Source: an uncultured Candidatus Saccharibacteria bacterium
GTDB taxonomy: Bacteria; Patescibacteriota; Minisyncoccia; Phycocordibacterales; JAACPR01
DNA: 64,000 nt
Direction: 5' to 3'
Assembly: GCA_964507955.1 (NCBI GenBank)
Contig: CAZDRR010000001.1
Span: 66,650-130,649 of the forward strand
Shown: positions 14,987 to 48,537 of the stretch, one piece after another
Layout of the letters: each line of letters starts with the position of its first letter
Position numbering within the stretch: the stretch's first letter is position 1
Position numbers and translations under genes: made by a program
The notes under the pieces: generated by a model
Seen by the model: the letters and a program-made list of their open reading frames with translations, nothing else
Told to the model about the DNA's origin: nothing
Databases searched by the model: none

Positions 14987-15502
14987 TTAAATAGAAAAGT
15001 ATTGACGAACTTGATCTAAAGAAATAAAAATTGAATTGTATTTGGGATAAATCACATCAACGCAACAATTTAAATATCTTTGATCGACTTTCTTCCAAGG
15101 TCCCCAACCTTTGTGGATAATATGGTTATGGGTATGTCCATGAACATTGTTTTTCCCTCGTAATTCGTCTGGATGAATCGGGCAATGAGTTAACCACATA
15201 CCCTTGTATTTCAACATTCCATGAACTTCTTCGAAAACCTCCATTTGATCTTTCGTGGAAACAAAATCACAATGATTGCCTTTAATAAGGATTTTACGTC
15301 CCTTTAAGTTGCCAAGGATATCCAATCCCTCTTTGGAAAAGGCCGCGTCTCCTAAACAATAAACAAGATCATTTTTACTAATTCTTCTATTCCAATCTTC
15401 TTGAATTAAGATTGTGTTTTCTTCGCTATTACCTACAAAATGTCTAAATTTACCGATATTTCGATGATCAAGATGTAAATCGCTGCAAATATATACGCTC
15501 AT
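14987..15502 (-). CDS. calcineurin-like metallophosphoesterase (Ser/Thr phosphatase family)
   Basis: The motifs D-x-H (SDLHLDH), GDxxD (LGDAAF), GNH (KGNHC) and HGH are present. Confidence 0.65.
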   Translation of the reverse strand: MSVYICSDLHLDHRNIGKFRHFVGNSEENTILIQEDWNRRISKNDLVYCLGDAAFSKEGLDILGNLKGRKILIKGNHCDFVSTKDQMEVFEEVHGMLKYKGMWLTHCPIHPDELRGKNNVHGHTHNHIIHKGWGPWKKVDQRYLNCCVDVIYPKYNSIFISLDQVRQYFSI

Positions 15503-16125
15503 AATTTTTTATAAAATTTTCCTTTTTTGTCAAGACACTGGTAAAATAGGTCCATCAGATCCATATCTATACCCCGAAAGGATTCCAGAGTCAAGAGTTT
15601 TGTAGGCATTTCTTTCAGTAAATAAGGATGGTAGATTGTTGTGCTGTCATACCATTTATTTTGGAGGAAGGTGAACTGATAATAGAACAAATATAGATTT
15701 GCGTTTTTCGCGTAAATTTCATTATCAAACAAGCCCCATCTTTTGGAATATTTTAAAGCCCGAGATTCACAATCTCTTTCCAAAGCAATAACATCCATTA
15801 CAGAATCAAAGTTTGAGCAATTTAATTTTTTTTGCTCCAAAAGATCCCAATAGATAAAATCGTCTTTCCATAACAAAGAATTTTCAACTGCTTGATTCAT
15901 ATGGGAGAATTCATGAACGAAAACTTGTTGAAATAAAGGATTTTTAGTTGCCACAACAATTTCTTCTCCGTCGCACCATCCAGAGCATTTTCCGCTCGGA
16001 TGACTGATATTACGGGTATTAACTAAAATAATTTTTTTATTATTTTTAGCAATATAGTTTTCGCTCCATTGAAAAAAATTTTGAAAATTTAAAGATTGTT
16101 GGGATAGGAAGCTATTTTTGTTCAC
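15499..16125 (-). CDS. hypothetical protein with HExxH motif (possible metallopeptidase)
   Basis: A 208 aa ORF containing VHEFSHM. Confidence 0.3.
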   Translation of the reverse strand: MNKNSFLSQQSLNFQNFFQWSENYIAKNNKKIILVNTRNISHPSGKCSGWCDGEEIVVATKNPLFQQVFVHEFSHMNQAVENSLLWKDDFIYWDLLEQKKLNCSNFDSVMDVIALERDCESRALKYSKRWGLFDNEIYAKNANLYLFYYQFTFLQNKWYDSTTIYHPYLLKEMPTKLLTLESFRGIDMDLMDLFYQCLDKKGKFYKKL

Positions 16126-16158
16126 ATTATATAATAATTGAAATTAGCAATTTTTCAA

Positions 16159-16234
16159 TGGTGGGAATTAAGGGAATCGAACCCTTATCTTGTCTTTAGG
16201 AAAGACTTATTCTAATCCATTATACTAAATTCCC
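16159..16234 (-). tRNA. tRNA (isotype not resolved)
   Basis: T-arm AAGGG-TTCGATT-CCCTT; acceptor GGGAATT/AATTCCC; CCA is followed by ATTTT. Confidence 0.45.
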
Positions 16235-16441
16235 ATACAAGTCAAGAAAAATGGAGGAAAACTAGGGTCCTGATCCCTATGAGTATTGTTCATACCCACC
16301 ACTTACTTTCCAAGTAAGGGCCAACACTTGCTGGCTTAGTTTTCCATTGGAGGATGATTGAACAGTCCAAGTCCATGCCTTTCAGCACACATCGTTTTCG
16401 AAACGAGTTTCCCAGCTTGGGAATTAATCATCCATTTAAAA

Positions 16442-16532
16442 TTGGAGGATCGTAATAGAATCGAACTATTATCCTAGTATTACTAGCATAGCCGAGGGTT
16501 CAAATCTCGTTTGCGGCCATTGCGCTACGATC
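16442..16532 (-). tRNA. type II tRNA (possibly Ser-TGA)
   Basis: Acceptor GGATCGT/ACGATCC; T-arm AATAG-TTCGATT-CTATT; long variable-arm hairpin CTAGTAATACTAG. Confidence 0.35.
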
Positions 16533-16538
16533 CATTTA

Positions 16539-16730
16539 TTATTCAAAAATTACTTCGTCATCATCGCCATCATTAGCAATAACGGAGGCTTTGCTTTTCT
16601 TTTCATCCCATTTGCTATAACAAACTGCTGCGCGTTGTTTATTATCGGGGAACTCTTTTGACAAATCCGCCATACAAGAACTCATAAATTCCTTTTTGGA
16701 CTGCTTTTTGGAAGGTGATTTAATAGGCAT
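16539..16730 (-). CDS. small hypothetical protein
   Basis: A 63 aa ORF lying between tRNAs. Confidence 0.2.
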   Translation of the reverse strand: MPIKSPSKKQSKKEFMSSCMADLSKEFPDNKQRAAVCYSKWDEKKSKASVIANDGDDDEVIFE

Positions 16731-16747
16731 ATTACTGTTTACACTTT

Positions 16748-16824
16748 AATAAAGAAATGGTCCTCGCAGTAGGATTCAAACCCACACAATCGCCCTTATA
16801 AAGAACGCGCTTTGTTCATCTCAG
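16748..16824 (-). tRNA. tRNA (anticodon loop TTTATAA; possibly Ile-TAT)
   Basis: Acceptor CCTCGTA/TGCGAGG; T-arm GTGGG-TTTGAAT-CCTAC; CCA encoded. Confidence 0.45.
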
Positions 16825-16829
16825 CCATA

Positions 16830-16914
16830 CGAGGAAAATTGGTAACTAAGGTGGGATTTGAACCCACAGAGGATAAATGATTTTAAGTCATTCGGTTGTC
16901 GCCATTTCCCTTAT
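16830..16914 (-). tRNA. type II tRNA, probably Leu (anticodon TAA)
   Basis: Acceptor GACTAAG/CTTAGTT; anticodon stem AATGA/TCATT with loop CTTAAAA; T-arm GTGGG-TTCAAAT-CCCAC; total length 85 nt. Confidence 0.45.
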
Positions 16915-16929
16915 CCACTTAGTCATTTT

Positions 16930-17148
16930 TTAAAATTCTATTTTCTTTGGTTTTCTAGTAATAGAGAGTTCAATTTCGAATTCATCTTGAAATTCATTTT
17001 CTCTTAAAAGAGGCCCATTGCGATGAACTTCTCCGTCGATAATAATCGTAATGTGATGACCAGACTTTGATTTACACGAAAAAGAATATTGCTCTGTTGG
17101 AGACAGTTGCATTCTATTATGAGTGCCAGAAATTAAGATCGCTTGCAT
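16930..17148 (-). CDS. small hypothetical protein
   Basis: A 72 aa ORF preceded on the - strand by TTGACT-N16-TAGATT. Confidence 0.3.
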   Translation of the reverse strand: MQAILISGTHNRMQLSPTEQYSFSCKSKSGHHITIIIDGEVHRNGPLLRENEFQDEFEIELSITRKPKKIEF

Positions 17149-17190
17149 TAGGCAAATCTAAGAGTTTTTCTGTAAAAGTCAAGAGAAAAA

Positions 17191-17269
17191 TGGTAGCCCG
17201 TGAGGAGGTCGAATCCCCAACCACAACTTTTTGAGAGTTGCCGCACTGCCACATTTAGCGTAACGGGCC
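17191..17269 (-). tRNA. tRNA (isotype not resolved)
   Basis: Acceptor GGCCCGT/ACGGGCT; anticodon stem CAACT/AGTTG; CCA encoded. Confidence 0.45.
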
Positions 17270-17278
17270 ATTGAAAAT

Positions 17279-17363
17279 TGGTGGGAAAGGTGGGATTCGA
17301 ACCCACAGAGGGTAAAAGATTCTAAATCTTTCGCTTGTCGCCAATTTCACTTATCCACTTTCC
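17279..17363 (-). tRNA. type II tRNA (possibly Leu-TAG)
   Basis: Acceptor GGGAAAG/CTTTCCC; T-arm GTGGG-TTCGAAT-CCCAC; anticodon stem AAAGA/TCTTT; length 85 nt. Confidence 0.45.
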
Positions 17364-17369
17364 CAAAAA

Positions 17370-17449
17370 TGGTGACTCTGATAGGAATCGAACCTACACT
17401 ATTAACTCTCTCAAAGTTATGCCTCTGCCTTGTGTTGGGCTACAGAGTC
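17370..17449 (-). tRNA. tRNA (isotype not resolved)
   Basis: Perfect acceptor GACTCTG/CAGAGTC; T-arm GTAGG-TTCGATT-CCTAT; anticodon stem TAACT/AGTTA. Confidence 0.45.
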
Positions 17450-18025
17450 TTTTTTTAAATTACAATCTGCGCAAAATATTTTCTTGCCATTCCAGTAAGG
17501 GCATACGGTTGGGTCCGTGCAATCAATAGCATATCCCATAATACCCTTTGACATTCCATCATTACTTTGGATTCGTATTTTGCGGAATCTCATTTTCTTG
17601 CCTTGAATAGTTTCATCGAAAGTTTCCGCTTCTCCAGACGCCCAAACAGATAAATCATGTTTGCGAAATAAATCTGCCGTTGCCTTGTCCCAACCGACTT
17701 CAAGATCAGTTTTACCTATATAGTCTTTTCTGTCAAGTCCATATGTTGAACAATAAGCTTCATTAACTTCCATCATTCGGAATTCAACTTCTCCGTCTGA
17801 TCTTACTTGGGCAACTTTGATCCACGCAGGTCTGTCAAAGGAATTTATAACACTAAAAAGCATTCCATTCAATCTTTGCACAGATATATTTGTATGTTGT
17901 TTTATTTCATTGATTTTATTGTCAAATCGCCCTTTAAGCTTAAAATAGGTAAAAAGTAATGCGGACAACTGCCCCCCGATTGAAACGACCAACTCCGTGA
18001 TTTGTCCACTATCCATAATGGACAT
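17417..18025 (-). CDS. membrane-anchored protein with PAS-like domain
   Basis: An N-terminal hydrophobic helix (ITELVVSIGGQLSALLFTYF) is followed by a PAS-like segment (MMEVNEAYCSTYGLDRKDYIGKTDLEV). The 3' end overlaps the predicted tRNA at 17370..17449. Confidence 0.3.
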   Translation of the reverse strand: MSIMDSGQITELVVSIGGQLSALLFTYFKLKGRFDNKINEIKQHTNISVQRLNGMLFSVINSFDRPAWIKVAQVRSDGEVEFRMMEVNEAYCSTYGLDRKDYIGKTDLEVGWDKATADLFRKHDLSVWASGEAETFDETIQGKKMRFRKIRIQSNDGMSKGIMGYAIDCTDPTVCPYWNGKKIFCADCNLKKDSVAQHKAEA

Positions 18026-18147
18026 TATTACACAAAAAAACTAACGGAAATCATTAGGTTTTTTAAAAAAATGGAGGCTATATAGAGAATCCAACTCTAA
18101 TTTCATCATTACGAAAGATGTATAATCGCATTATATCATATAGCCAT

Positions 18148-18222
18148 TGGTAGGGGATCAGGGAGTCGAACCCTGTGGTGGCAGTTTGTAGGACTGCTGC
18201 CCAACCGTAGAGCATATCCCCC
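18148..18222 (-). tRNA. tRNA (possibly Val-TAC)
   Basis: T-arm CAGGG-TTCGACT-CCCTG; acceptor GGGGGAT/ATCCCCT; anticodon stem GCAGT/ACTGC. Confidence 0.4.
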
Positions 18223-18230
18223 ATTAAAAT

Positions 18231-18305
18231 TGGACGCGCCGACACGAATCGAACGTGCGTAATGCTCTTTTGCAGAGAGTTGAGTAGCCATTCCCCCACA
18301 GCGCG
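18231..18305 (-). tRNA. tRNA (possibly Cys-GCA)
   Basis: Acceptor CGCGCTG/CGGCGCG; T-arm CACG-TTCGATT-CGTG. Confidence 0.4.
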
Positions 18306-18313
18306 ATAAAAAT

Positions 18314-18392
18314 TGGCCCGCGTAGGTCGGAATCGAACCGACTATTTAACTCGTTTTGGAGGCGAGTTGCAACCGCCACTTGCTGCTACGGG
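18314..18392 (-). tRNA. tRNA, probably Trp (CCA) with an unusual anticodon loop
   Basis: D-arm GCAA-GTGGCGG-TTGC; T-arm GTCGG-TTCGATT-CCGAC. The anticodon stem ACTCG/CGAGT encloses a 9-nt loop, CCTCCAAAA. Confidence 0.35.
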
Positions 18393-18640
18393 ATGAAAAA
18401 TTTAAAAGAGTGGAGTCCGTAACTTTTTCTTGGCAGAATGAGGTTTAGACAGTGACTCCGCATGGGCTACTTTGGTCGTTTCGGTTCCACCCGAATTAAG
18501 ATTTCTCAACTTGTTACTGGACACCAACGCGCCTTTCCATGACTGGCTTACAAACTTCGCCGCTTTCGCTCTCTTTTAAAATTGGTGGAGAATATGCAAA
18601 ACACTTTATTAAAATTTTGTTTTGCAGTGTAAAGATTATT

Positions 18641-19138
18641 ATGAACCTTAAAGAACAAATTCGACAATATAAATTAGAAAATCCCGATAAAGGTTATGCC
18701 TCTATTGCAAAACATTTTAATTTAAAATCTCATAATTCTGTTAGATATCATTTAGACGATGCTGTTAAAATTAATATATTAAAATCGTCTAAACAATCTA
18801 GGCAGCGTAATGTATTAAAATTAAAAATCAAACAAAGTATTAAAGAGTCTAAAAAACAGGGAGTTATATCCGATTCATTTAATGATTTATTTAAATATTT
18901 TTCTACCCAAGAACCTATTTGTAATTTATCTGGTGTAAAATTTAATATCAATGATTCTTCTGCTTATGAATTAGATCATAAAATTCCTTATTCTCGCGGA
19001 GGAACCAATCAAAAAGAAAATTTGCAATTTACTATTAAATCTGTTAATCGCGCAAAACATTCTTTATTAGAAGAAGAATTTGTGTCTTTATGTAACGCAG
19101 TATCTAAATTTATGGGAAATGGACACAACGAGAATTGA
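18641..19138 (+). CDS. HNH homing endonuclease (start taken at the internal Met; the ORF extends to 18539)
   Basis: HNH motif YELDHKIPYSRGGTNQKENLQFTIKSVNRAKH. This is a + strand gene embedded in the - strand tRNA array. Confidence 0.55.
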   Translation: MNLKEQIRQYKLENPDKGYASIAKHFNLKSHNSVRYHLDDAVKINILKSSKQSRQRNVLKLKIKQSIKESKKQGVISDSFNDLFKYFSTQEPICNLSGVKFNINDSSAYELDHKIPYSRGGTNQKENLQFTIKSVNRAKHSLLEEEFVSLCNAVSKFMGNGHNEN

Positions 19139-19535
19139 ACTCGCCACACCGACATTGCAAGTGTCAGTCGCCCCCAAGGAACATGTGCGCCCATATATTG
19201 CCGTGAGAACCCTAAGCCTGATCTCTCGCATCATAATCAGCAATCAGGCGTGTTACTGATCTCTTGTGCTTTACGGCGAAATTGGCGGTCCATAGGGGGA
19301 ACGATCCCCTTCCTCAAGATTGACAATCTAGTGATGCTTCCTTTACACTAATGGACCTTAAAATTTATTAAAATTGGTAATTGGTTATGCCCTTTGACCG
19401 AGGGGGTGTGTTCTTATCTTACAGAACGACGTTGGATATGCTACCTATTCGTTCGGGCGGCTCCTTAAATTTACTTTGTCGATCCGATGCATATTAGATC
19501 GACTTTTCAACGATAAGACCAACTCTAACCAAAAC

Positions 19536-19610
19536 TGGTAGGCAGTGGGGGAATTGAACCCGCCGTCTCTTGATTCGTATTCAAGTATTCTTCCGTTATA
19601 CTAACCGCCC
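19536..19610 (-). tRNA. tRNA-Arg (anticodon ACG)
   Basis: D-stem GTAT/ATAC; anticodon stem CTTGA/TCAAG with loop ATACGAA; CCA encoded. Confidence 0.5.
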
Positions 19611-19623
19611 ATTGAAAATTGTT

Positions 19624-19698
19624 TGGAGGCACGATGGAGAGTCGAACTCCAGTATCACCCATACCAAGGGTGTATAATAACCGTTATATGATCGAGCC
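19624..19698 (-). tRNA. tRNA-Thr (anticodon GGT)
   Basis: Anticodon stem CACCC/GGGTG with loop TTGGTAT; T-arm TGGAG-TTCGACT-CTCCA. Confidence 0.45.
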
Positions 19699-19701
19699 AT
19701 T

Positions 19702-19773
19702 TGGTCGGATACTTGAGAATCGAACTCAACTGATCTTGCTCCCAAAGCAAGCGCATCGCCAGTCTGCCTGTAT
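19702..19773 (-). tRNA. tRNA-Pro (anticodon TGG)
   Basis: Acceptor CGGATAC/GTATCCG; anticodon stem CTTGC/GCAAG with loop TTTGGGA. Confidence 0.45.
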
Positions 19774-19779
19774 CCGTTA

Positions 19780-19858
19780 AATTGGTGCGAGTAGTGAGAT
19801 TCGAACTCACGATCATTCTTCGTTGGCAACGAAGTGCAATGGACCACTATGCGACACT
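19780..19858 (-). tRNA. tRNA-Gly (anticodon GCC)
   Basis: Acceptor GCGAGTG/TACTCGC; anticodon stem CTTCG/CGAAG with loop TTGCCAA; T-arm GTGAG-TTCGAAT-CTCAC; CCA encoded. Confidence 0.55.
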
Positions 19859-20243
19859 CGCAAAAAACTCTCCGAATTACGCATTGTAAAGAGGCGCGGA
19901 GAGTATGAAAATTGTTTCTATGCCTTGAGATTACAGGCTAGGGCGATCAACCATTCACAAGATTATTAGAAGACATTCCAAGCCCCCACTTCCTTGCTTA
20001 TCCACTACCTCTCGATAGTTGTCAATCAATGACGCTGTTTTATATACCGTTAGCTATTACGGTTTACCGCTTGCCATACTCAACCTTCGTTAATTCTTCG
20101 GGGTATGCCTACCGCGAATAAATTCCCTTAGATTAAACGCCTTGTGCCTTGCGGGCCAAGGTTCGCACAGAATTATCTTTCGATTTCTGTATTAGTCACC
20201 TTTCTGGCTTTCGGGGTCGCAACTTTTGCTTTTTATATATTAT

Positions 20244-20343
20244 GACATTCCCTTGAATGGAACCGCTTTATCCAGTTAAGCTACCCGCTCCGACAAAGCA
20301 TAAGCTGTCTGCTCTGTTGGCGAGCGGGACAGGAATCGAACCT
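20244..20343 (-). ncRNA. rearranged tRNA-like locus: 3' half (T-arm, acceptor, CCA) lies upstream of a matching 5' half (acceptor, D-arm, anticodon arm with loop ATTCAAG, anticodon TCA)
   Basis: On the - strand the order is GCAGG-TTCGATT-CCTGT, then CCCGCTC-G-CCA, then a 24-nt spacer, then GAGCGGG-TA-GCTT-AACTGGATA-AAGC-G-GTTCC-ATTCAAG-GGAAT. The two acceptor strands are perfectly complementary, but the halves are in permuted order. Confidence 0.35.
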
Positions 20344-22993
20344 GCATCTGATATATGGAAACCTACATTCATGTGTGCGACCTCGCTGCTTCCAAAATCT
20401 CTCGAAATTAGAAATACAACACACGAATTAACCTCTCTCTCGCGAGTTCAGTATCATCCCCAAGACTTCCCTTGATATAATCACAGGTTGCCTCGAAAAT
20501 ATGCCGTTCGCCTTTGCATCTCTGCTCTGACTTATGGCTACCCTTTGGGATTCATGCTTTCGAACCAAATTAAGTTTCCCTTTCAGGACCGATTACACCG
20601 TTGGCCTCACCGTTTTACTCTCAATGACCCGTAGGCTTCAACAACATAAGTTTTGATTTGCTCATATTGCCGATTCCCTTGGCTTGCTTGGTGGACTGCT
20701 TTTATACAGTGGGCGGCGTAGGACACCTTATCCCTTTCCCCGAATCACTTCGGGATTATCCAGTAATGCCCCCAAGCGGGCAGAATTTTTAAAATGTTAA
20801 AGAACTTTTTGTATCGCACCTTCGAAGCTTTGCATCGTCGGCTGATGTTTAGGACTATATCTGGTTTTCAGATTTTGTCAACAGGTTTTTTGAAAATTTT
20901 ACGGTTGTCTTGGCTAAGACAACCAAATAAGGTTGTTTAAAGATGGAGAAGATTGGATTCAAACCAATTCGGCATTTACTTTCCAGCCTGCCGTATTGCT
21001 GGAGTCAGTTACAGACGTATGCACGATTATAGCCCACGGGAGCAATCAACAGATCTAACCCATAAAACTAGACCAGTCTTCCGAGCCGCGCTGGTTTCGG
21101 GTATGTCTCACCACACTGCTTCTCCTAAAATTTGGTCCTCCCGACTCGCATCGAACGAGTAATTTGCAATTATCAGTCGCAGGTTATGGCCGTTTTAACT
21201 ACAGGAGGTAAGCGCCAAACTGGTTCGCATATTAAGAGGCGTTTTGGCGACTGTCAAGAAAAAGTTGGTTGGACCAGAGAATTGCGACATCTCAGCCTTC
21301 CGCTTATCGGGCGGATGCTCTTCCTTTGAGCTATGGTCCAATGAAAATTGTGCTACCAGAGTGGGAATCGAACCCACACAACTCCCGAGTTTTATCCTGA
21401 GTCGAACAGGATTCCCTTGGTATTGGCCAAGGGGTAGCACCAGCTACTTCTCGCAGCATTAAAATGGAGGCCCATTGGTGACATGCACACCACTATCTAG
21501 GTTACAAATCTAGCGCATCGCTATCTATGCTTATAGGCCATGAAATTTGGCTGTGAGACAGGGACTTTCACCACTCCGATCATTCTTGCAAGAGAAACTG
21601 TTGATCGCGCTATAATTCGCTTCCCACAATTGAAAATGGAGGAAGGCTGAGAACTTGAATCCCATGAGAGTATTAGTCCCACAATCTCGTTAGCACCGAG
21701 TTCTAGTCGCCTGACCAGTTAACCTTCCATAAAATGGTCGCTTGTCTCCGAATCGAACGGAATTATTTCGGGCTTCAACCGAACGCACTGTCACCAGACC
21801 TGCCCACAAGCGTAAAAATTGGCTCCTCACCTTCGAATCGAACGAAGCTCGTTGGCTATTACTAGCTTACAGCTTAACAGGCTGCCCGCACTCCTTGTGC
21901 GTTGTGAGGATTTATATATGAAAATTTTTGGTGCTGTCTCTCTCGCCGTCTCTCTCGCGGGTCAAAGGCTTACGACCTTTCCCACGTATCGTTTTAAGTT
22001 AACGCTAGTTATTTAAAAATGATAAGTCGTCCTCCCCCTTATCTTGCATTAAGTTTTTCCCCACAATTTTACGTTTTCTTATGTTTTACCGTTATGGTTC
22101 TTACGGGCAATGCTTCATTCAACTCTAATATGCTTCCATATTTTCAACCCGTAGAGGATTTAAGTTCTATGTTTCAAATTGGTGCAAGACACGGGAGTTG
22201 AACCCGCACGATATTCGGGTAAGAGCCGAATGCCCGTAGCCGAATGCCCGTCCACTGTGGCTTATCTTGCATAAAAATGGTCAGGGTGGAGGGTAATGCT
22301 CCCACTTCTACTGGTTAAAAGCCAGTGGCTTCACTATTAAAGCTTCACCCCGTTACAAAACAACAAGTGGATTGTAAAAGCCCACATTACTCCCTCCTAC
22401 GGAAGCGTCCTAACACTTAAACGATTGTTGTTAAAAGATTAATTAGCAGTAGAAAGCATTACTACGCCATTTCAGTTTATTGGATTTTATTTGTCAGGGA
22501 ATTTGTGACCTGATTTTATAATCAATATTCTTGATGGATGGATCACAATCTCCATTCTCCAACGTATCTTTCCTGTAGCAATTCGCGGACTGCTAAAATG
22601 GTGCGTGCCGTGGGATTCGCACCCACTCAGACTTATTTGTATGCCGCAAGGTTACAGCTTGCTTTGCTCTCTCAGGCTAGGACACGCATAAAACAAACAG
22701 GGGTGTCCTGCCACTAGACGACGATCAACATCATTGAATCGACAGGAATCGAACCTGTGTCTCCCCTTAGACTTATAAATTGGTCGCTCCCCTTAGATCG
22801 GACTCATGAAATCCAACGCCTGCGCAGCGAGGAGCGTTTGAAAAGATTAGTCAAACTGTGGAACGACCACAAACCTTCGTTAGAGGCGAGAACTAACGGA
22901 TTCGAACCGACAGCAGCCTGCCTTTTTCTCTGTTTGACTAAAAGTGGAGGCGGCACGGTGATGTAACCGTGAATCATCCGCCATTGAAAAATT

Positions 22994-23075
22994 GGTAGGA
23001 CGAGAGGGATTCGAACCCTCACTAATTCCTCGTTATGAGCGAGGTCCAGCACCATTACTGGTTGTCGGCCAATTG
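22994..23075 (-). tRNA. tRNA-like (Met/Ile2-type anticodon arm CCTCG-CTCATAA-CGAGG); acceptor pairing imperfect
   Basis: A T-arm (GAGGG-TTCGAAT-CCCTC), a D-arm (CCAG/CTGG) and a CAT anticodon arm are all present. The acceptor strands do not pair cleanly. Confidence 0.3.
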
Positions 23076-23222
23076 AAAATTTTCTGTTGAGAGTGTGAGT
23101 TCCACTCTGTTATGGCTATTTAGTCACCGTCACGATTCATCATCGTCGCTTGCATCGTTCTCAGCTACAACAGAAAATAAAAATTGGTTGCAGAAGTTAG
23201 ATTCGAACTAACGATTTTCACC

Positions 23223-23660
23223 TTATGAGGATGACGAGATGGCCGCTTCTCTATTCTGCTTTTTTAAATATTTAATTGCGGACTCAAGGCTAAAAATATT
23301 ATCAAAAAAATGCCCTAATCCTAAATTGCAATGGTTACAAATCCATCCTCTAAATTTATTAGAAGAATGACAGTGGTCTAATTGGAGATTAGAATGTTTT
23401 CCGCAGATTTCGCAATTTAAGGGTTTTTCAGTTATTTGGTTTTTATTTTGTAAAAAAGAATAACCGTGTAAAAAAGTCTTCTCAGGATTTTTCTTTTTCC
23501 ATTTTTCAGAATATTGAATTTGTTTTTTGCTATTTTTGGGATACCAAACTTCTTTGACATATTTATTATGGCATTCCTTGCAATAAGATCGGGGTTTTCC
23601 TCTATTAAGCGAAAAATTATCTATAGATTTTAATTGGCCACATTTTGAACATTCTTTCAT
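23223..23660 (-). CDS. HNH endonuclease of the endonuclease-VII-like type with N-terminal zinc ribbon
   Basis: N-terminal zinc-ribbon pattern CSKCGQLKSIDNF...CKEC. EndoVII-like motif LDHCHSSNKFRGWICNHCNLGLG. Confidence 0.6.
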   Translation of the reverse strand: MKECSKCGQLKSIDNFSLNRGKPRSYCKECHNKYVKEVWYPKNSKKQIQYSEKWKKKNPEKTFLHGYSFLQNKNQITEKPLNCEICGKHSNLQLDHCHSSNKFRGWICNHCNLGLGHFFDNIFSLESAIKYLKKQNREAAISSSS

Positions 23661-23878
23661 AAGAAGAATTACACAATACTCTCATAAATACTCTCATAAT
23701 TTTAGAATAATCTAAAACAAACGACCAACGTGCTACCCTTACACTATATTCCCGATTAAGAGAGTCCAGATTCGAACTGGTCTTTTGGTTAAGTCATGCG
23801 CCAATATGCTTCCATTACACCTAATGCCCGTAGTGGACAATGCCGAATCGAACGGCCCCTTTGACTGAATTTGTAAAA

Positions 23879-23955
23879 TTGGCACTCCCAGCGGGAATCA
23901 AACCCTGCGTTTCATGATTGAAAGTCATGTGTCCTGCTCGACTAGACGATGGGAG
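23879..23955 (-). tRNA. tRNA-Glu (anticodon TTC)
   Basis: Acceptor GCTCCCA/TGGGAGT; anticodon stem CATGA/TCATG with loop CTTTCAA; T-arm CAGGG-TTTGATT-CCCGC (4 of 5 positions pair). Confidence 0.5.
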
Positions 23956-24332
23956 CATTGAAATTTAGGCATCTCGCCAGCGGTCATTACGAGTGATTAG
24001 CTCGTCTGGAGCCGCCAGTGACACCACGGTTTTTGTTTTTAGCGAAATCACTCGCGAATACAAGAACCTTGAAAATTTATCGGATGAACCCTAAAACCGA
24101 ACATTACTGCTCAAGGCTTATTGGTCCTACTAGGGTCCGAAAACTCCTAGAAGTTTCTACAAACGCTCTTGTTTCCCCCAACTTGTTCTCTCAAGATTGG
24201 CTTCACAGTCATCACTGTCCCCTTTCGGTCTTAGCGGGTTCTGGCCCTCGCTGCCGTCGATGTTTCAAACTCTACAGATTTTTCCGAATTCGTCAACAGA
24301 TTTTTTCGGAAATTTCTCTTTTCTACAGAAAA

Positions 24333-24512: not shown

Positions 24513-25088
24513 TTATTTGCTAATTCCCCCATGCGCACTCAAAACATCGGCTTGATGGATAATCAAAGCTTCTAAAGAATTTGGTGCAATTGGAGAACCC
24601 CATTCTCTAACAGGACCATGGTGGGAAAGAATAATATGTTTGATTCTGTTTATGAAATTTTCGCTAACATTATGTTTTTTTGCTATTGCGACAAACTCTA
24701 TCGCTCCATCAATAATATGAGTATGCTCGGCATCTTGACCTATTCCTTTAACAAAAAATTTGTCCTGATAAGGTAGAAATCTTTGTTTGGGAATTGGAAA
24801 ATTCGCTATAGAATACTCTTTTATTTTTAAGAAGTCGTGAAAAAGACACCCGACTCCAAGAATATCTTTATTAACGGGATGGATGTGTTTAATATTGGCA
24901 ATTTCTTCGGCTATATTCCAAACTTCCAATGTATGAGCGGCTAATCCCCCGACATAAGCATGGTGAAAACTTAATGATGCAGGAAAAATAAAAAAGTCAG
25001 GATTCGACAAGACTTCCGCACATGTCTCTTGTAGAGTAGGAGACGTAATCAGATCAACTTTTCTTATGAATTCGTCTTTGATGTTCAT
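24513..25088 (-). CDS. HD-domain phosphohydrolase
   Basis: H...HD...H...D pattern (FHHAYVGGLAAHTLEV, LFHDFLK, HIILSHHG). Confidence 0.55.
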   Translation of the reverse strand: MNIKDEFIRKVDLITSPTLQETCAEVLSNPDFFIFPASLSFHHAYVGGLAAHTLEVWNIAEEIANIKHIHPVNKDILGVGCLFHDFLKIKEYSIANFPIPKQRFLPYQDKFFVKGIGQDAEHTHIIDGAIEFVAIAKKHNVSENFINRIKHIILSHHGPVREWGSPIAPNSLEALIIHQADVLSAHGGISK

Positions 25089-36368: not shown

Positions 36369-36656
36369 TTAATAATACCAATAAAAAGATTTTGGCTGCT
36401 TTTTGAAAGGAATAAAAGGACTATTTTTGAGAATTTCTGTCATCCAATAATGATCGCTCAACGTTTCATTTTGAAATGGCACAGAAAGACATTTATAAAT
36501 GATTTTTGGAGGTTTAGTAGATACAAAGCTCGTCATGTGTCCAGTATCCAACCATAAACCATGTTGTGAATTATGAAAATCATAACAAACAGTTCGATTT
36601 CTTTTGGTCTTATGATAAGCGCATCTTTGATGACCACAATAAATTCTTTCGTTCAT
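36369..36656 (-). CDS. hypothetical Cys/His-rich protein
   Basis: A 95 aa ORF. Confidence 0.3.
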   Translation of the reverse strand: MNERIYCGHQRCAYHKTKRNRTVCYDFHNSQHGLWLDTGHMTSFVSTKPPKIIYKCLSVPFQNETLSDHYWMTEILKNSPFIPFKKQPKSFYWYY

Positions 36657-37075: not shown

Positions 37076-37718
37076 ATGCTCCTAGTTGTCTCCAGCCCCT
37101 ACGCCCATAAACCCAATCACAATTTTCATGAGATCCTTCTTCGCTTACAATGCGCCCGCAACCATCACACATTGAAGTTTTTGGTTTTCGCGGACGATAG
37201 TTGTGGAGCTTTGTCAAGAATTCTTTTACAGTTTCTTCGAAATTATCATTGGTAAAATTAACCCCGTAATAATCATCGACTTTCAAATAGCGTTCTTGAT
37301 ATGAACCATTGATGCCAATTAAAGAAGTTTTTGAGTAATTTTCCCGAGGCGGAAGATTATCAATCAGAACATTTTCTTGGCTTGCAATATCCAATGGATT
37401 GACGGCCCTGCCACCATAAGCCGTGCCAACATAAGCATTTTCAATATCTTCGCGGGCAATGATATGATCTGGCTCAAATTCCAAATCAGCCAAGCGATTG
37501 ACATTTGACGCATATTCCCGCGTTGAAGTTGTAAGAACATAAACATTGTCCTTGCCAACGAGTTGACGGCAGAATTCTACCAAAGTTTTCGCACAGGGGC
37601 GAATGATGGTATAATAATTATAACCCCCGATCCTAAACACAACATGTTCTTGATTCGGATTGTATAATTCTGTATGAATTAATGTGGAATCAAGATCCCA
37701 AAAGATTTTGTTTATCAT
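37065..37718 (-). CDS. HAD-superfamily phosphatase (nucleotidase / polynucleotide-phosphatase-like)
   Basis: DxDxT motif (DLDSTL) at the N-terminus and a C-terminal Cys cluster. Confidence 0.45.
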   Translation of the reverse strand: MINKIFWDLDSTLIHTELYNPNQEHVVFRIGGYNYYTIIRPCAKTLVEFCRQLVGKDNVYVLTTSTREYASNVNRLADLEFEPDHIIAREDIENAYVGTAYGGRAVNPLDIASQENVLIDNLPPRENYSKTSLIGINGSYQERYLKVDDYYGVNFTNDNFEETVKEFLTKLHNYRPRKPKTSMCDGCGRIVSEEGSHENCDWVYGRRGWRQLGAYDG

Positions 37719-37747: not shown

Positions 37748-38725
37748 ATGCAGAACAAATTCACATTAACTCGAAAACGAGATGTTGTCAATCTTTATTT
37801 AGAAGTCAAAAGATTGGATATTGTCCGCTCCGAATTTAAAACATCAATATATATAATTAAAAATATTTTAAAAGAGGCTGGGGTAGAAATCGCTCGGAGA
37901 AAACAACCTTTAAATATTAAATATTTTAAAAATATAGATACTCCTGAAAAAGCATATTGGTTGGGATTTATTGCTGCGGATGGTTGTCTGCACAAAACAA
38001 AATACAAGTTAAGTCTTTGCGTGAAAGATGCAGACATTTTATTTAAATTTCAAAAAGCTATCGGAGCGGGTAGTCCCGTTAGACATCGTATTATTTTAGA
38101 TAAAAGAACGGGGAAAACAAATCAACAGTATAATTTACAGATTAATTCAAAAGAATTTTGTCAATATATTTGTTCCCATGGTGTTGACGAAAATAAATCA
38201 AAACAATTTTCTTTTCCAAAAATTGAAGAGAAATATTATTCACATTTTATTAGAGGTCTCTATGACGGAGATGGAAGCATACATGTTAACAAATCTAAAA
38301 TTAAAAAGAAAATTAATTATAGAATTAATATGATTAGTTCTATAGAATGTATTACTTTTATAAAAATGTATTTTGAAGATAAATTAAAATTCAAAGTTCC
38401 GAAAATTTATTCTAAATATGATCAAGGAATTCATTATTTAAATATGGAGCAAGATGCATTAAAATTTTTAGAATGGATTTATAAAGATTCCCGAGAAGAA
38501 ATTCGACTTGACCGTAAATATGAAAAATATATTTCCAATTTGCAAGCCTTCGAAGATCAGAAAAGATTAATTGTTAATGAAAAAACAGGAGAATCTTTCT
38601 CAATTAGAAACGTTCGGCAATTCTGTTCAGAAAAAGGATTAAATGAAAATGTAATTCATAGAACACTTAAAACAGGAAAATCGTCAAAAAATGGAAAACA
38701 TGCGGGCTGGAAGCTTGTTTATTGA
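37748..38725 (+). CDS. LAGLIDADG homing endonuclease (two-motif, free-standing)
   Basis: Two LAGLIDADG motifs: LGFIAADGCL and IRGLYDGDGSI. Confidence 0.65.
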   Translation: MQNKFTLTRKRDVVNLYLEVKRLDIVRSEFKTSIYIIKNILKEAGVEIARRKQPLNIKYFKNIDTPEKAYWLGFIAADGCLHKTKYKLSLCVKDADILFKFQKAIGAGSPVRHRIILDKRTGKTNQQYNLQINSKEFCQYICSHGVDENKSKQFSFPKIEEKYYSHFIRGLYDGDGSIHVNKSKIKKKINYRINMISSIECITFIKMYFEDKLKFKVPKIYSKYDQGIHYLNMEQDALKFLEWIYKDSREEIRLDRKYEKYISNLQAFEDQKRLIVNEKTGESFSIRNVRQFCSEKGLNENVIHRTLKTGKSSKNGKHAGWKLVY

Positions 38726-43171: not shown

Positions 43172-43216
43172 GTAAGTATGCCTACGGGGGATTTCTCCCC
43201 CGCAGGTTATGGGTTA

Positions 43217-44242: not shown

Positions 44243-44272
44243 ACCGATACTTTAATTGGTTTTGTGATTATG

Positions 44273-46443: not shown

Positions 46444-46497
46444 ACACGGTTTGCCCGTGTTGTCAATTTTTTATGCAAAAAACTTTATTACAAAAAA

Positions 46498-46827
46498 TTA
46501 ATCTAAATTATAATCAACATCCGCACTTGGAGTTCCATCAATGCGGAAGATATTACCTTCATCGTCAAAGTAATACAATTTATCAAACCACTTGAAATTC
46601 AAATTAATCTGCTTCACTTCCTTGCAAATTTCTTCTCCAGAAAAAGGAGAATAGAAATATTTTTTCCCGTCTTTCTTGATTGTTCCATCGGGGAAAAGCA
46701 AGTCTTTTTCAGCAAAATAACAGTCTTTCAAGTGGTTGTTCTGCCATACTTCAATATAAGCGAATTCATTGTCGAAATCGTGTCTTTTCGTTTCGTGGAT
46801 TATGGTTTTTTGGACTATTGTTCTCAC
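46498..46827 (-). CDS. hypothetical protein
   Basis: A 109 aa ORF. Confidence 0.3.
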   Translation of the reverse strand: MRTIVQKTIIHETKRHDFDNEFAYIEVWQNNHLKDCYFAEKDLLFPDGTIKKDGKKYFYSPFSGEEICKEVKQINLNFKWFDKLYYFDDEGNIFRIDGTPSADVDYNLD

Positions 46828-46867
46828 TACTTTATTTTACACGATTCTGAAAAAAATTCAACTAAAA

Positions 46868-47056
46868 TCATTGTTTGGGCCAAACCAACTCCCTGCTGTC
46901 GTCTTCATACACAGCAAAAACTTTGCCGTTATGAGACTTGGCATTGATAATCGCTTGACTCAAAGCATCTGGTTGATTGGGCAAATTAAGCGAAGTGCTA
47001 TAAGAACCCCTCCACTTTTCCTTGTCAGACATTACTTCGTATAGGGTGACTTTCAT
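46868..47056 (-). CDS. hypothetical protein
   Basis: A 62 aa ORF. Confidence 0.25.
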   Translation of the reverse strand: MKVTLYEVMSDKEKWRGSYSTSLNLPNQPDALSQAIINAKSHNGKVFAVYEDDSRELVWPKQ

Positions 47057-47301
47057 TGTTTTGATTTTTGAGATACCGCAAGCAAAACTTCATGAATTTG
47101 TTTGCGTGTTTCGTGATCAAGAATCCGTCCATTGCTATCCGCAGGAGCGGATTGAATGACTTCATCTTCTTCCAGACCAAGGACCAGAGACATACACTTG
47201 AGCTTTCTTAAAATTCCAATTTCTTGATATTTCAAGATTGCCCAAAGTGTATCAATCTCTACCTCGTCAGCATCGGCAATTGTTTCAAGTAACGTTTTCA
47301 T
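47053..47301 (-). CDS. hypothetical protein
   Basis: An 82 aa ORF. Confidence 0.25.
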   Translation of the reverse strand: MKTLLETIADADEVEIDTLWAILKYQEIGILRKLKCMSLVLGLEEDEVIQSAPADSNGRILDHETRKQIHEVLLAVSQKSKQ

Positions 47302-47525
47302 TCGCTCAACGTCATTTCAACAACAGGCTTATCAACGGCAGGAGTTTCAGCGGGAGCATCAGCAACCACTGTTGGAACAGCGCCATTTTGTTTTGCCAGC
47401 CAAACTCGCCCTACAGGAACAACTGTATTAGGAGAAAATTTGGAGGCCAATTCTTCAACTGTCATGTTTATGAAACTAACGGCACCAGTTGGGCGTCCGC
47501 GAGTTTTTGTATTTGTAGTATTCAT
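47298..47525 (-). CDS. hypothetical protein
   Basis: A 75 aa ORF. Confidence 0.25.
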   Translation of the reverse strand: MNTTNTKTRGRPTGAVSFINMTVEELASKFSPNTVVPVGRVWLAKQNGAVPTVVADAPAETPAVDKPVVEMTLSE

Positions 47526-47561
47526 GTTTTTATGATACGGGTTTTAATAGAAATGTCAAGA

Positions 47562-47897
47562 TTAATTTTTCAGAATATTTAAGGCACTTTCGGGCCATTT
47601 TGTATCACTGTTCCAATTGTCCGAATCCTTTTGATAAATCCAACACGCGATAACCTCTCCATCAATTTCAATCTCTGGAGTAGCCCAAGTAGAGGATAAG
47701 AAGGTATAATCATCCAAACATGGTTGTCCATCTTTGTAAATATCCCCTCCAGTCCATTCCCAATCGCTACGCAATCCCGCAGAAGCTTTTTGAGGATTAC
47801 GTTCTTTGATTAGTTTCGCCGCAGTATTCCAATCAAATACCATCAGGGGCTTATTTCTGTTCGCTTCCCCCATTGCGAATGCTTGCATACTGTCCAT
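47562..47897 (-). CDS. hypothetical protein
   Basis: A 111 aa ORF. Confidence 0.3.
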   Translation of the reverse strand: MDSMQAFAMGEANRNKPLMVFDWNTAAKLIKERNPQKASAGLRSDWEWTGGDIYKDGQPCLDDYTFLSSTWATPEIEIDGEVIACWIYQKDSDNWNSDTKWPESALNILKN

Positions 47898-47910
47898 TTT
47901 TTTTTTTTTT

Positions 47911-48537
47911 TTAGTCTATATACACTCTCAAATCTCCCAAATTGAAAGATTTGTTTTGGATGTTTTCCAAAAATTGTTTGCAGGCGCGATTGATATTGTA
48001 TCCTTTGTTCGAATATTTCACCAAACGTTTCATTGTCGCTACAGGAAAAGAAACATCATGAATGGACAAATATTTTGTCTTTACGTCTCGCGCAAATTGT
48101 AAGGGAATATAAATAAATTCCCCATCAAAAGCACATCGTCCTGCATTAATGTCAAATTGATTAATTACTTCGTCTGGAGTCCCAGCCGTTTCAAGAATTA
48201 ATTGAACCTTCATTTCCCCCTTTTTATAAGTGAATAGTTTGCCTTCGGGGCATTCAAAAATAAGATCAAAATTTTCTTTTTCAAGAATCTCCCTGACTTC
48301 AATTACTCTAGCGGGAAGAACAGGCTGAAAAACATCCTGATCGACAGGTTGATACATTAATTGCCCATTAAAAAACAAATCAAAATCACAGACTTCTTCA
48401 TCATTAATCAGGGTCCTTAAAGAACCTCCCGCGAGAAAACAACCATTACCCAATACCCCCAAAACCCACAACGGAGCGATTTTTGAGAATCTTGACTTGC
48501 GGATATGTGTCGCAGGAATTTTAAAAATTTTAGACAT
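47911..48537 (-). CDS. nucleotidyltransferase of the Pol-beta superfamily (CCA-adding / tRNA-NTase head-domain-like)
   Basis: FLAGGSLRTLINDEEVCDFDLFF matches the GGxVRD...DxD signature. Confidence 0.4.
   Translation of the reverse strand: MSKIFKIPATHIRKSRFSKIAPLWVLGVLGNGCFLAGGSLRTLINDEEVCDFDLFFNGQLMYQPVDQDVFQPVLPARVIEVREILEKENFDLIFECPEGKLFTYKKGEMKVQLILETAGTPDEVINQFDINAGRCAFDGEFIYIPLQFARDVKTKYLSIHDVSFPVATMKRLVKYSNKGYNINRACKQFLENIQNKSFNLGDLRVYID

Follow-up and report, generated by a model that had tools for sequence, protein, structure and literature searches.

Four enzymes encoded by a phage with a tRNA array raise the question of whether they form a dedicated toolkit for tRNA 3′ ends or a collection of separate functions. 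The DNA analysed here (the window, 64 kb) belongs to a novel phage of ~139 kb that carries rIIA/rIIB; its tRNA or tRNA-like genes number about 29, and almost all of them encode CCA. The tRNA array (14095..23956, minus strand) contains 21 tRNAs detected by ARAGORN and 6 further tRNA-like Rfam hits, with CCA encoded in all, and is broken by small ORFs, an HNH gene and a GOLLD-like RNA. Over the whole window, a 3′ CCA was encoded in 22/22 ARAGORN tRNAs, bearing out the many CCA-encoding tRNAs of an earlier note on this DNA, and each of 7 extra tRNA-like Rfam hits was followed by CCA, 6 directly and 1 after a few bases. The earlier note had proposed that a metallophosphoesterase, a peptidyl-tRNA hydrolase, a HAD phosphatase and a nucleotidyltransferase jointly maintain or repair tRNA 3′ ends. 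ORF calling, Pfam, PHROG and fold comparisons recovered all four ORFs at the coordinates it gave, all on the minus strand, and agreed with its superfamily calls. The four genes are spread across 33 kb with ~60 other genes in between. We favor, with a probability of about 0.55, the reading that these are four real enzymes but not one system, where the hydrolase and the HAD phosphatase are a reduced remnant and the other two are unrelated accessory enzymes.

The peptidyl-tRNA hydrolase (PTH2; 36653..37075, minus strand, 140 aa) is, judged by its sequence, a bona fide Pth2. It scored 100 bits against Pfam PTH2 (PF01981, cut-off 23) and 89 bits against TIGR00283 (cut-off 82), was under the cut-off of the NF003314 equivalog (95 versus 126 bits), and matched PDB entry 2zv3 at 2e-19. 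Like archaeal and eukaryotic Pth2 (M. jannaschii 2zv3, S. solfataricus 1xty), to which the match is full-length and over curated cut-offs, it retains the catalytic-region motifs; GK..Q..HA and DNG.T.F..T.T..GP were invariant in 22 phage PTH2 homologues. In contrast to these enzymes and to annotated phage Pth2 (genes available for comparison include Myrna gp36 and those of Atu_ph07, XacN1 and RaK2), it has its own lineage-specific variable insertion of ~25 aa after the FLTK motif. PTH2 was found in 48 GenBank phages, mostly tRNA-rich or jumbo, and Pth2 genes have been reported in large tRNA-rich phages (PMC5852040). No biochemical characterisation of any phage Pth2 was found in the searchable literature.

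The start of the PTH2 gene overlaps the end of the HAD gene (37065..37718, minus strand, 217 aa) by 11 nt, an arrangement in which the two would probably be co-translated. The HAD product is a phosphatase of the FCP/SCP (NIF) type with a DxDxT motif. It scored 42.7 bits against Pfam NIF (PF03031, cut-off 21.8) and keeps D8-x-D10-x-T12, T63, K130 and D120-N121. The top 30 Foldseek matches of its AlphaFold model (pLDDT 90) were SCP1-3, FCP1, CTDNEP1, TIM50 and UBLCP1; the Cys-rich C-terminal tail (residues ~178-217) is unique and of low confidence. By both Pfam and fold, the protein falls in the FCP/SCP phosphoprotein-phosphatase family, and assignment to protein phosphatases was an outcome that the earlier note had set against its own proposal. 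A phosphatase of the T4-PNK type was rejected on the basis of the NIF match, the SCP/FCP fold and the absence of similarity to T4 PseT, with which no alignment was obtained. No homologue was found in GenBank phages. Although the protein resembles the FCP1/SCP1 CTD-phosphatase family in its NIF match, SCP-like fold and DxDxT, T, K and DN motifs, it is phage-encoded, has ~18% identity to SCPs, and in some relatives has an RNA-repair context. Because of this context, the enzyme may act on a polynucleotide end and not on phosphoserine. In the predicted FCP/SCP fold the active site would be open to macromolecules, and the enzyme would take a phosphomonoester off an RNA 3′/2′ end, as the relatives' context suggests, or off a phosphoprotein, as the family precedent suggests.

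In related phages, homologues of PTH2 and HAD lie in an RNA-repair island whose ligases are of the Rnl1 and Rnl2 types and which also encodes a His-phosphatase, a small P-loop kinase, an HD protein, a metallophosphoesterase of 220 aa and a putative 2H esterase. Pfam scores were 64 bits for Rnl1 (PF09511), 50 bits for the Rnl2-type ligase (PF09414) and 58 bits for His_Phos_1, and marginal for the kinase (AAA_33, 27.8 bits, cut-off 27); the 2H assignment reflects two HxT motifs only, without support from Pfam or PDB. In the relatives L067 and L014, the HAD homologue is at the head of RNA-repair genes or next to them: L067 has a tight one-strand cassette, HAD-(2H-like)-kinase-Rnl1, and L014 has a kinase gene that overlaps the one for HAD, with Rnl1 546 bp from PTH2. 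A homologue (33% identity) of the HD-domain phosphohydrolase that adjoins ThyX in the window (24513..25088, minus strand) is located directly upstream of PTH2 in L014. Directly upstream of the HAD gene, the window has a LAGLIDADG homing-endonuclease gene in the opposite orientation (37748..38725, plus strand); in L014 this place is taken by the P-loop kinase gene. When co-occurrence was counted in de-duplicated lineages with the nucleotidyltransferase as a control, repair genes were near PTH2 in 6/13 lineages, compared with 2/24 for the control (p=0.013). The corresponding links of HAD (8/46 lineages, p=0.48) and of the window's metallophosphoesterase (7/60 lineages, p=1) were not distinguishable from the control, and because of this the view of an island remnant is based on the few tight loci and the synteny with L014.

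The genes clustered with PTH2 in the relatives are comparable to the T4 Pnkp-Rnl1 heal-and-seal system and to jumbo-phage RNA-repair sets (Iyer et al. 2021, PMC7824862). Documented phage sets include HAD, calcineurin-like and HD phosphatases and CCA-adding enzymes, and tRNA genes accompanied by repair enzymes are, as a concept, a published picture (PMC7824862). In contrast, both ligase and kinase are missing from the window, and its HAD is not of the PNK type. The Pfam scan of the 64-kb window revealed no ligase, RtcB or PNK, and nothing was found there by tblastn with T4 Rnl1, Rnl2 and PseT or with the relatives' ligase, kinase, 2H-like, His-phosphatase and 220-aa metallophosphoesterase (MPE220) proteins, in line with the earlier failure to see an RNA ligase. 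Nor did the search of the window reveal a remnant of a kinase gene. Lacking a ligase and a 5′-kinase, the window's genes cannot heal and seal anticodon-loop breaks. The genome's remaining ~75 kb may encode both activities, in which case the set would be functional.

The metallophosphoesterase (14987..15502, minus strand, 171 aa) had been placed directly beside the tRNA array; it is indeed near tRNAs, but it is inside the array, between tRNA-Gly (end 14792) and tRNA-Arg (start 16159). It belongs to the calcineurin-like phrog_547 family ('phosphoesterase', E 1.2e-47), scored slightly below the cut-off of Pfam Metallophos_2 (25.5 versus 27 bits), and shares the motifs DxH, GD, GNH, H and GHxH kept across its family. 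Its closest relatives also sit in tRNA/tmRNA arrays, and shared synteny is the simplest explanation for the location. The family is very widespread in phages, with homologues in 1,604 GenBank phage records, and its context is often replication or nucleotide metabolism. Homologues adjoin DNA polymerase/exonuclease genes in 50-kb Pseudomonas phages and NrdG in KVP40-like Vibrio phages, and one lies between a kinase and ThyX (L146). Among 60 related lineages, a tRNA or tmRNA is within 2.5 kb of the homologue in 11, and a P-loop kinase directly follows it in 4. The last arrangement and the calcineurin-superfamily phosphoesterase itself recall Clostridium thermocellum Pnkp, which joins a kinase, a calcineurin-type phosphoesterase and a ligase-like domain. 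However, there is no specific sequence relationship, since the sole match of the family profile to all PDB sequences was 1xm7 (aq_1665, uncharacterised, 1e-11), and the window contributes neither kinase nor ligase. The protein is probably a common phage phosphoesterase whose place in the array is an arrangement common to its closest relatives.

The nucleotidyltransferase (47911..48537, minus strand, 208 aa) is a stand-alone Pol-beta enzyme of the Gad2 family (PF26128) by sequence, with a predicted fold like the head and neck of class-II CCA-adding enzymes. Precomputed PF26128 matches were present on the protein and on all 47 homologues. In hhalign it aligned with the Gad2 (Gabija anti-defence 2) protein from Bacillus phage SPbetaL7, which has been verified by experiment and whose sequence was taken from the supplement of Yirmiya et al. 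(bioRxiv 10.1101/2023.05.01.538930); the probability was 98.1% (E 1.2e-13, Gad2 residues 21-165), and BLASTP gave 3e-8 at 22% identity. The two phage-borne proteins have a homologous core with the common motifs AGG..R/S, DxD, QLI, FD..C and P[VI]..KR..KY, but Gad2 has 400 aa, and its C-terminal ~235 aa are missing here, the protein ending right past head and neck. GG-x2-R...DxD...D is invariant in the family; the third carboxylate is D129, beside motif A (GGxxR...DxD). In Foldseek searches of the PDB with the AlphaFold model (pLDDT 95), class-II tRNA nucleotidyltransferases and poly(A) polymerase I made up 37/37 top matches (E 2e-6 to 5e-4, TMq 0.43-0.64), the best being CCA/A-adding enzymes, in agreement with the CCA-adding-enzyme-like head described earlier. 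Although head and neck resemble those of class-II tRNA nucleotidyltransferases (CCA-, CC- and A-adding enzymes and poly(A) polymerase I; 4wc2, 1vfg, 3h39, 4x4w, 3aql; PF01743), the protein is far shorter than their ~370-470 aa and lacks their tRNA-binding body and tail domains and the EDxxR motif, which is also absent from the invariant residues of its family. Pfam gave no PF01743 match, and hhalign with a genuine phage PF01743 protein gave a probability of 0.7%, with likeness limited to motif A. The family (9,048 representatives) consists mostly of stand-alone proteins of ~190-210 aa. Of 82 GenBank phage matches, 51 were 34-37 kb Streptococcus thermophilus phages, and the phages in GenBank that carry it are mostly small and lack tRNA arrays. 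In none of 24 related lineages did a kinase, 2H-like or His-phosphatase gene lie within 10 kb, and only 2 had an Rnl1 ligase within that distance. The enzyme probably does not serve to repair the CCA ends of tRNAs, although a tRNA 3′-end activity may remain, given its predicted fold. Homology suggests an anti-defence role equivalent to that of Gad2. This minimal family member would most likely move a nucleotide onto the 3′ end of a nucleic acid or onto some other acceptor, most likely in counter-defence or host manipulation, as Gad2 acts against Gabija; Gad2-family proteins are toxic when over-expressed.

These observations bear on two other readings. The earlier note's idea can be cast as ligase-free maintenance of tRNA 3′ ends, in which PTH2 strips peptidyl or acyl groups, HAD and/or the metallophosphoesterase clear the 3′-phosphate or 2′,3′-cyclic phosphate that a tRNA-targeting nuclease of the host leaves behind, and the nucleotidyltransferase rebuilds the lost 3′ nucleotides of tRNAs from both host and phage. 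Encoded CCA in all phage tRNAs means that any CCA-adding activity would serve to repair tRNAs and not to mature them, and the nearest solved folds of the nucleotidyltransferase, the placement of relatives' HAD and PTH2 homologues among RNA-repair genes, the PNK-like kinase and tRNA/tmRNA arrays near metallophosphoesterase homologues and the documented phage repair sets all point the same way. However, the nucleotidyltransferase is a Gad2-family protein without the EDxxR nucleotide-template motif or tRNA-binding domains, stays away from the island's kinase, 2H-like and His-phosphatase genes, and is carried mostly by small phages devoid of tRNA arrays. The four genes, dispersed among many others, do not travel jointly outside the lineage, HAD has no GenBank phage homologue, and its fold family is that of protein phosphatases. 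We consider this route improbable, and the case for a single tRNA 3′-end repair set is weak.

It is possible, but still less probable than the remnant reading, that the four genes serve wholly unrelated housekeeping and counter-defence functions with no RNA-repair meaning. HAD would then dephosphorylate a phosphoprotein of the host or the phage, the metallophosphoesterase would have nucleotides or DNA ends as substrates in replication or nucleotide metabolism, PTH2 would ease peptidyl-tRNA drop-off under heavy phage translation, and the nucleotidyltransferase would be an anti-defence enzyme. The NIF match and SCP/FCP/Dullard/TIM50 fold of HAD, the DNA polymerase/exonuclease, NrdG and kinase/ThyX neighbours of metallophosphoesterase homologues, and repair-gene links of both families at the level of the control are consistent with such functions, as are the typical accessory and anti-defence neighbours seen in the Pfam scan of the window (NADAR, SLOG, nucleoside deoxyribosyltransferase, ThyX and HD). 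Nevertheless, the L067 cassette and the kinase/HAD overlap in L014 are not easily accounted for by a HAD family unconnected with polynucleotide ends, and PTH2 is significantly tied to RNA ligases in relatives.

Under the favored reading, the overlapping HAD and PTH2 pair would be what is left of the RNA-repair island known in relatives, and the four genes would be separately inherited accessory genes in the minus-strand early/accessory arm of the phage. All parts belong to kinds already known. The proposed toolkit is thus partly supported: a joint 3′-end repair set is made unlikely by the Gad2-family assignment and the missing ligase and kinase, but RNA salvage is real for PTH2 and plausible for HAD, because the relatives' homologues sit in an RNA-repair island. 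Only PTH2 among the four enzymes clearly serves tRNA salvage, and the overlapping phosphatase possibly does so too. From its family and catalytic motifs, PTH2 would hydrolyse the ester bond of peptidyl-tRNA or N-acyl-aminoacyl-tRNA, and its action would bring tRNA, including the phage's own CCA-ready tRNAs, back into the usable pool.

All four open reading frames that the earlier note had singled out as a toolkit for maintaining tRNA 3′ ends and peptidyl-tRNA pools are present on the minus strand, at precisely the positions given there: a calcineurin-like metallophosphoesterase (14987-15502, 171 aa), a Pth2-type peptidyl-tRNA hydrolase (PTH2; 36653-37075, 140 aa), a DxDxT phosphatase (HAD; 37065-37718, 217 aa) and a Pol-beta-type nucleotidyltransferase (NTase; 47911-48537, 208 aa). 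PTH2 is a genuine Pth2, as judged by full-length profiles above curated cut-offs and by conserved motifs. It scored 100 bits against PF01981 (cut-off 23) and 89 bits against TIGR00283 (cut-off 82); the score against NF003314 was 95 bits, under the cut-off of 126. Its best solved relatives are archaeal Pth2 enzymes (2zv3, 2e-19), and the active-site region also aligned to 1rlk. The N-terminal motif GK..Q..HA and the C-terminal motif DNG.T.F..T.T..GP were invariant in 22 phage Pth2 homologues, in which a variable insertion of ~25-45 aa follows the residues FLTK. PTH2 carries K22, D105 and T109, and we take these residues and the motif region to be catalytic. Homologues were found in 48 GenBank phages, chiefly large, tRNA-rich ones such as Myrna, Atu_ph07, XacN1 and RaK2. 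An enzyme of this family would recycle peptidyl- or N-acyl-aminoacyl-tRNA.

ARAGORN called 22 tRNAs, 21 of which form a minus-strand array at 14095-23260, and an encoded CCA terminates all 22 genes, in agreement with the description of these tRNAs as CCA-encoding. Seven additional tRNA-like Rfam hits were not called by ARAGORN, six on the minus strand (16848-16920, 17282-17350, 18075-18145, 21269-21340, 22281-22352 and 23883-23956) and one on the plus strand (59466-59542). CCA follows each of the seven, immediately in six cases and with a few bases in between in the remaining one, which brings the total to ~29 tRNA or tRNA-like genes. The metallophosphoesterase gene had been placed beside this array; the location is right, but the gene sits within the array, between tRNA-Gly (ending at 14792) and tRNA-Arg (starting at 16159). 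Megablast with the tRNA region as query found no match, and hence no close relative, among GenBank phages.

Other structured RNAs were detected in the same region. An ORF-poor gap of ~1.27 kb inside the array, from tRNA-Gly(GCC) to tRNA-Ile(GAU), holds a full-length match to GOLLD RNA (RF02032) at 19922-20316 on the minus strand (120.3 bits, E = 8.5e-33); its score is under the Rfam gathering score of 150, so that it is absent at the default threshold. A weak match to the Y-RNA-like YrlA (20236-20375, 37.6 bits against a gathering score of 69) overlaps the 5′ part of the GOLLD-like RNA. The GOLLD-like RNA and tRNA-Gly(GCC) directly flank an abiF RNA motif (RF03085; 19867-19903, minus strand, 39.5 bits, gathering score 37), a possible decoy or antitoxin-like RNA aimed at an abortive-infection system of the AbiF type. 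No tmRNA was found within the window. In the closest relatives, the metallophosphoesterase homologue has phage tmRNA genes as neighbours within the tRNA arrays (IMG/VR loci of related phages: L006, 10520-10853; L134, 16324-16654; L135, 11307-11700; L137, 7400-7736; L191, 6008-6415); one of these tmRNAs is of the permuted/alpha type.

The NTase belongs to the Gad2 family. Precomputed annotation assigned PF26128 (Gad2) to the exact NTase protein and to 47 of 47 homologues. With the Pfam copy used here, the NTase matched no model at E ≤ 1, PF01743 included; the missing Gad2 match is explained by the absence of PF26128 from this copy, in which a verified Gad2 was likewise unmatched. This verified Gad2, the 400-aa anti-Gabija protein of SPbetaL7 (ORF_159, sequence from the supplement of Yirmiya et al., bioRxiv 10.1101/2023.05.01.538930), aligned with the NTase family over Gad2 residues 21-165 (hhalign probability 98.1%, E = 1.2e-13) and matched the NTase itself by BLASTP at 3e-8. 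The two proteins differ in length in that the C-terminal region of Gad2, ~235 aa, is absent from the 208-aa NTase. A search for relatives returned 9,048 cluster representatives (E ≤ 1e-3), mostly stand-alone proteins of ~190-210 aa, and 51 of the 82 GenBank phage hits were 34-37-kb phages of Streptococcus thermophilus. Gad2-family proteins are toxic on over-expression. The NTase would be a Gad2-like counter-defence nucleotidyltransferase.

The reading of the NTase as having a CCA-adding-enzyme-like head was structurally correct. The AlphaFold model (pLDDT 95) shows the head and neck fold with motif A (GGxxR, DxD), and the residues G37, G38, R41, D51, D53 and D129 are invariant in the family. 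The top 37 PDB matches by Foldseek were all class-II CCA-, CC- or A-adding enzymes or E. coli poly(A) polymerase (E from 2e-6 to 5e-4, TMq 0.43-0.64), and viral structure matches included uncharacterised phage proteins and giant-virus tRNA nucleotidyltransferases. At the sequence level, a profile search of PDB sequences with the NTase recovered zero CCA enzymes. Motif D, EDxxR ([ED]DxxR), the amino-acid template for CTP/ATP, is found neither in the NTase nor among the family invariants; the corresponding segment, whose position was assigned by eye, reads [FY]P[VI]AT.KR. The NTase stops behind the neck, at residue 208, and lacks the body and tail domains, which bind the tRNA acceptor and T-arm. 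One related environmental phage (L008, 1443-2855) does encode a true CCA-adding-type enzyme of full length (470 aa; PolyA_pol head, RNA-binding and HD domains), 7 kb from its metallophosphoesterase homologue, and hhalign of the NTase with this PF01743 protein gave a probability of 0.7%. True CCA enzymes therefore exist in related phages of this kind, not in the window. Repair of tRNA CCA ends by the NTase is very unlikely. A broader proposal is that the ~200-aa Gad2-family NTases are stripped-down class-II tRNA nucleotidyltransferases acting on RNA, tRNA or DNA 3′ ends, teamed here with HAD or the metallophosphoesterase and PTH2 in ligase-independent tRNA 3′-end repair; by extension, Gad2 would overcome Gabija through 3′-end nucleotidylation and not through complex binding. 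We put the probability of this proposal at 0.1.

The earlier note had also cast HAD as an RNA-end healer, naming assignment to protein phosphatases as an outcome that would refute this role, and it is to such a family that HAD belongs. HAD is an FCP/SCP-type phosphatase, because it matches the Pfam NIF profile (PF03031, 42.7 bits against a cut-off of 21.8), adopts the SCP/FCP fold and shows no PNK or PseT likeness. The 30 best PDB matches of its AlphaFold model (pLDDT 90) were SCP1-3, FCP1, CTDNEP1, TIM50 and UBLCP1, and no polynucleotide or PNK phosphatase was present among the top 50 Foldseek matches. BLASTP against T4 PseT returned only noise (E ≥ 11), with no specific similarity to a Pnkp phosphatase domain, and no 5′-kinase of the Pnkp type, fused to or adjoining HAD, was found within the window. 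D8, D10, T63, D120 and K130 are invariant and N121 nearly so (≥90%) in the family. Metagenomic data yielded 139 homologues of ~175 aa; no homologue was found in GenBank phages. The C-terminal tail of HAD (residues ~178-217; 37065-37200, minus strand) is Cys-rich (CDGCGRIVSEEGSHENCDW...) and of low pLDDT. These last ~40 residues are missing from the aligned homologues and unique to the copy in the window; they may form a small zinc-binding appendage. The 11-nt overlap of the two genes suggests that HAD is co-expressed with PTH2, and HAD would strip a phosphomonoester from a macromolecular substrate. A phosphoprotein is a plausible candidate for that substrate at somewhat under even odds, and an RNA end is a tentative one. 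We considered taking the HAD family as an outright refutation of the toolkit and tempered this in view of the gene strings at two loci of related phages (L067 and L014), described below.

The metallophosphoesterase matched phrog_547 at 1e-47 and scored slightly under the cut-off for Metallophos_2. Searched against all PDB sequences (E ≤ 1), its family profile had a sole match, the uncharacterised Aquifex protein 1xm7, and NCBIfam returned only a weak match to PdeM (20 bits against a cut-off of 150); neither search revealed a specific link to the CthPnkp/lambda-phosphatase clade. Homologues are widespread, occurring in 1,604 GenBank phage records, among them those of 50-kb Pseudomonas phages, in which they adjoin DNA polymerase or exonuclease genes, and of KVP40-like Vibrio phages, in which they adjoin NrdG; in the closest relatives, the homologue sits in tRNA/tmRNA arrays. 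An apparent enrichment near tRNAs in raw locus counts was not significant after de-duplication (11/60 versus 2/24 for the NTase, p = 0.33). The idea that the gene corresponds to an ORF of the T5 tRNA region was dropped, as tblastn found no match in T5 27-52 kb. That this enzyme heals RNA ends appears unlikely. A 208-aa ORF at 15499-16125 on the minus strand overlaps the start of the metallophosphoesterase gene with its end by 4 nt. It contains an HExxH-like motif (HEFSH) and gave no Pfam, PHROG or PADLOC match; homologues occur in related contigs, seldom adjoining the metallophosphoesterase.

A Pfam scan of all remaining ORFs of the 64-kb window, concatenated, recovered neither an RNA ligase nor RtcB nor a polynucleotide kinase, and tblastn with T4 Rnl1, Rnl2 and PseT found no match in the window. 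The observation that the window has no RNA ligase thus holds. The combination required for heal-and-seal repair, a ligase and a 5′-OH kinase with a phosphoesterase, was not found within the 64-kb window, and because ligase and kinase are missing, repair of anticodon breaks cannot be completed by the genes of the window.

A different picture was obtained when IMG/VR loci were inspected within ±10 kb of each homologue (14 loci for PTH2, 30 for NTase, 80 for HAD and 80 for the metallophosphoesterase). In relatives, PTH2 and HAD lie in an island with an Rnl1-type ligase (PF09511, 64 bits), an Rnl2-type ligase (PF09414, 50 bits), a His_Phos_1 protein (58 bits), an HD protein and a 220-aa metallophosphoesterase. 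The island also holds a small P-loop kinase, marginally assigned (AAA_33, 27.8 bits), and a putative 2H esterase, a weak call made from two HxT motifs only; searches of these two proteins against PDB sequences were uninformative. At L067 (1080-3825), HAD, 2H-like, kinase and Rnl1 genes follow one another on one strand with tiny gaps. Another locus (L017, 8306-16049) carries, in this order, an Rnl2-type ligase, PTH2, a His-phosphatase, a 2H-like protein, the kinase, Rnl1, a thioredoxin-like protein and the 220-aa metallophosphoesterase. The locus L014 shares synteny with the window; there, the start of HAD is overlapped by the kinase gene, and 546 bp separate Rnl1 from PTH2. Kinase and HAD genes also overlap at L082 and are 586 bp apart at L067. 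No homologue of these island partners was detected in the window.

Loci in these ±10-kb fragments, which come from related, non-independent contigs, were collapsed to lineages at >90% identity. A repair gene was present within 5 kb in 6 of 13 PTH2 lineages, 8 of 46 HAD lineages, 7 of 60 metallophosphoesterase lineages and 2 of 24 NTase lineages. Compared with the NTase as a control, only PTH2 differed (p = 0.013; HAD, p = 0.48; metallophosphoesterase, p = 1). HAD and PTH2 occurred within 10 kb of each other in 14 of 46 HAD lineages, with varying order and spacing, and were directly adjacent in only two. The toolkit reading is partly upheld by the repair genes near PTH2 and HAD in relatives, and is weakened by the missing ligase and kinase and by the Gad2-family identity of the NTase; the window is at most a reduced version of a phage RNA-repair set.

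The surrounding genes include divergent rIIA and rIIB, tail-fibre genes, a clamp-loader/RuvB-like ATPase and many homing endonucleases. The same exact proteins are also present on a 138,977-bp NCBI contig and on Logan contigs of up to 7 kb, and IMG/VR holds related contigs of 138-148 kb. The remaining ORFs matched HD, ThyX, HNH and LAGLIDADG endonucleases, DUF4326+NADAR, 3D, nucleoside deoxyribosyltransferase-like, YopX, YAcAr/SLOG, GP88 and DUF932 in Pfam. The load of homing-endonuclease-type genes (HNH, NUMOD3, LAGLIDADG and EndoVII-like; 1194-1862, 18539-19138, 25964-26533, 37748-38725, 48505-49320, 50280-50930 and 59623-60069) is unusually high, and several of these genes lie among or next to the arrayed tRNAs and the accessory genes. 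Three minus-strand genes from the Pfam scan, a DUF4326+NADAR fusion (27015-27773), a nucleoside 2-deoxyribosyltransferase-like protein (28341-28877) and a YAcAr/SLOG protein (41416-41805), are of types usual in NAD/ADP-ribose and nucleotide conflicts, and they suggest that this arm of the genome is a counter-defence or accessory region. PADLOC gave zero hits on the seven window proteins searched.

Jumbo-phage RNA-repair sets comprising tRNAs, HAD, calcineurin-like or HD phosphatases and CCA-adding enzymes have been reported (PMC7824862). Because such sets with tRNA genes were already described, the toolkit idea is not new; Gad2 is also known, as are phage Pth2 genes, which are routinely annotated. 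Modestly new are two leads, the class-II CCA-enzyme-like fold of the Gad2 family and, in a clade of uncultured phages, RNA-repair islands that include Pth2 and a HAD of the FCP/SCP type. For the anti-Gabija protein Gad2, the CCA-enzyme-like fold of its family suggests nucleic-acid 3′ ends as candidate substrates. The occurrence of Pth2 among Rnl1 and Rnl2 ligases and a small kinase points to peptidyl-tRNA hydrolysis within phage tRNA salvage, and the island context singles out, as a candidate polynucleotide phosphatase, a HAD subfamily usually counted among the protein phosphatases.
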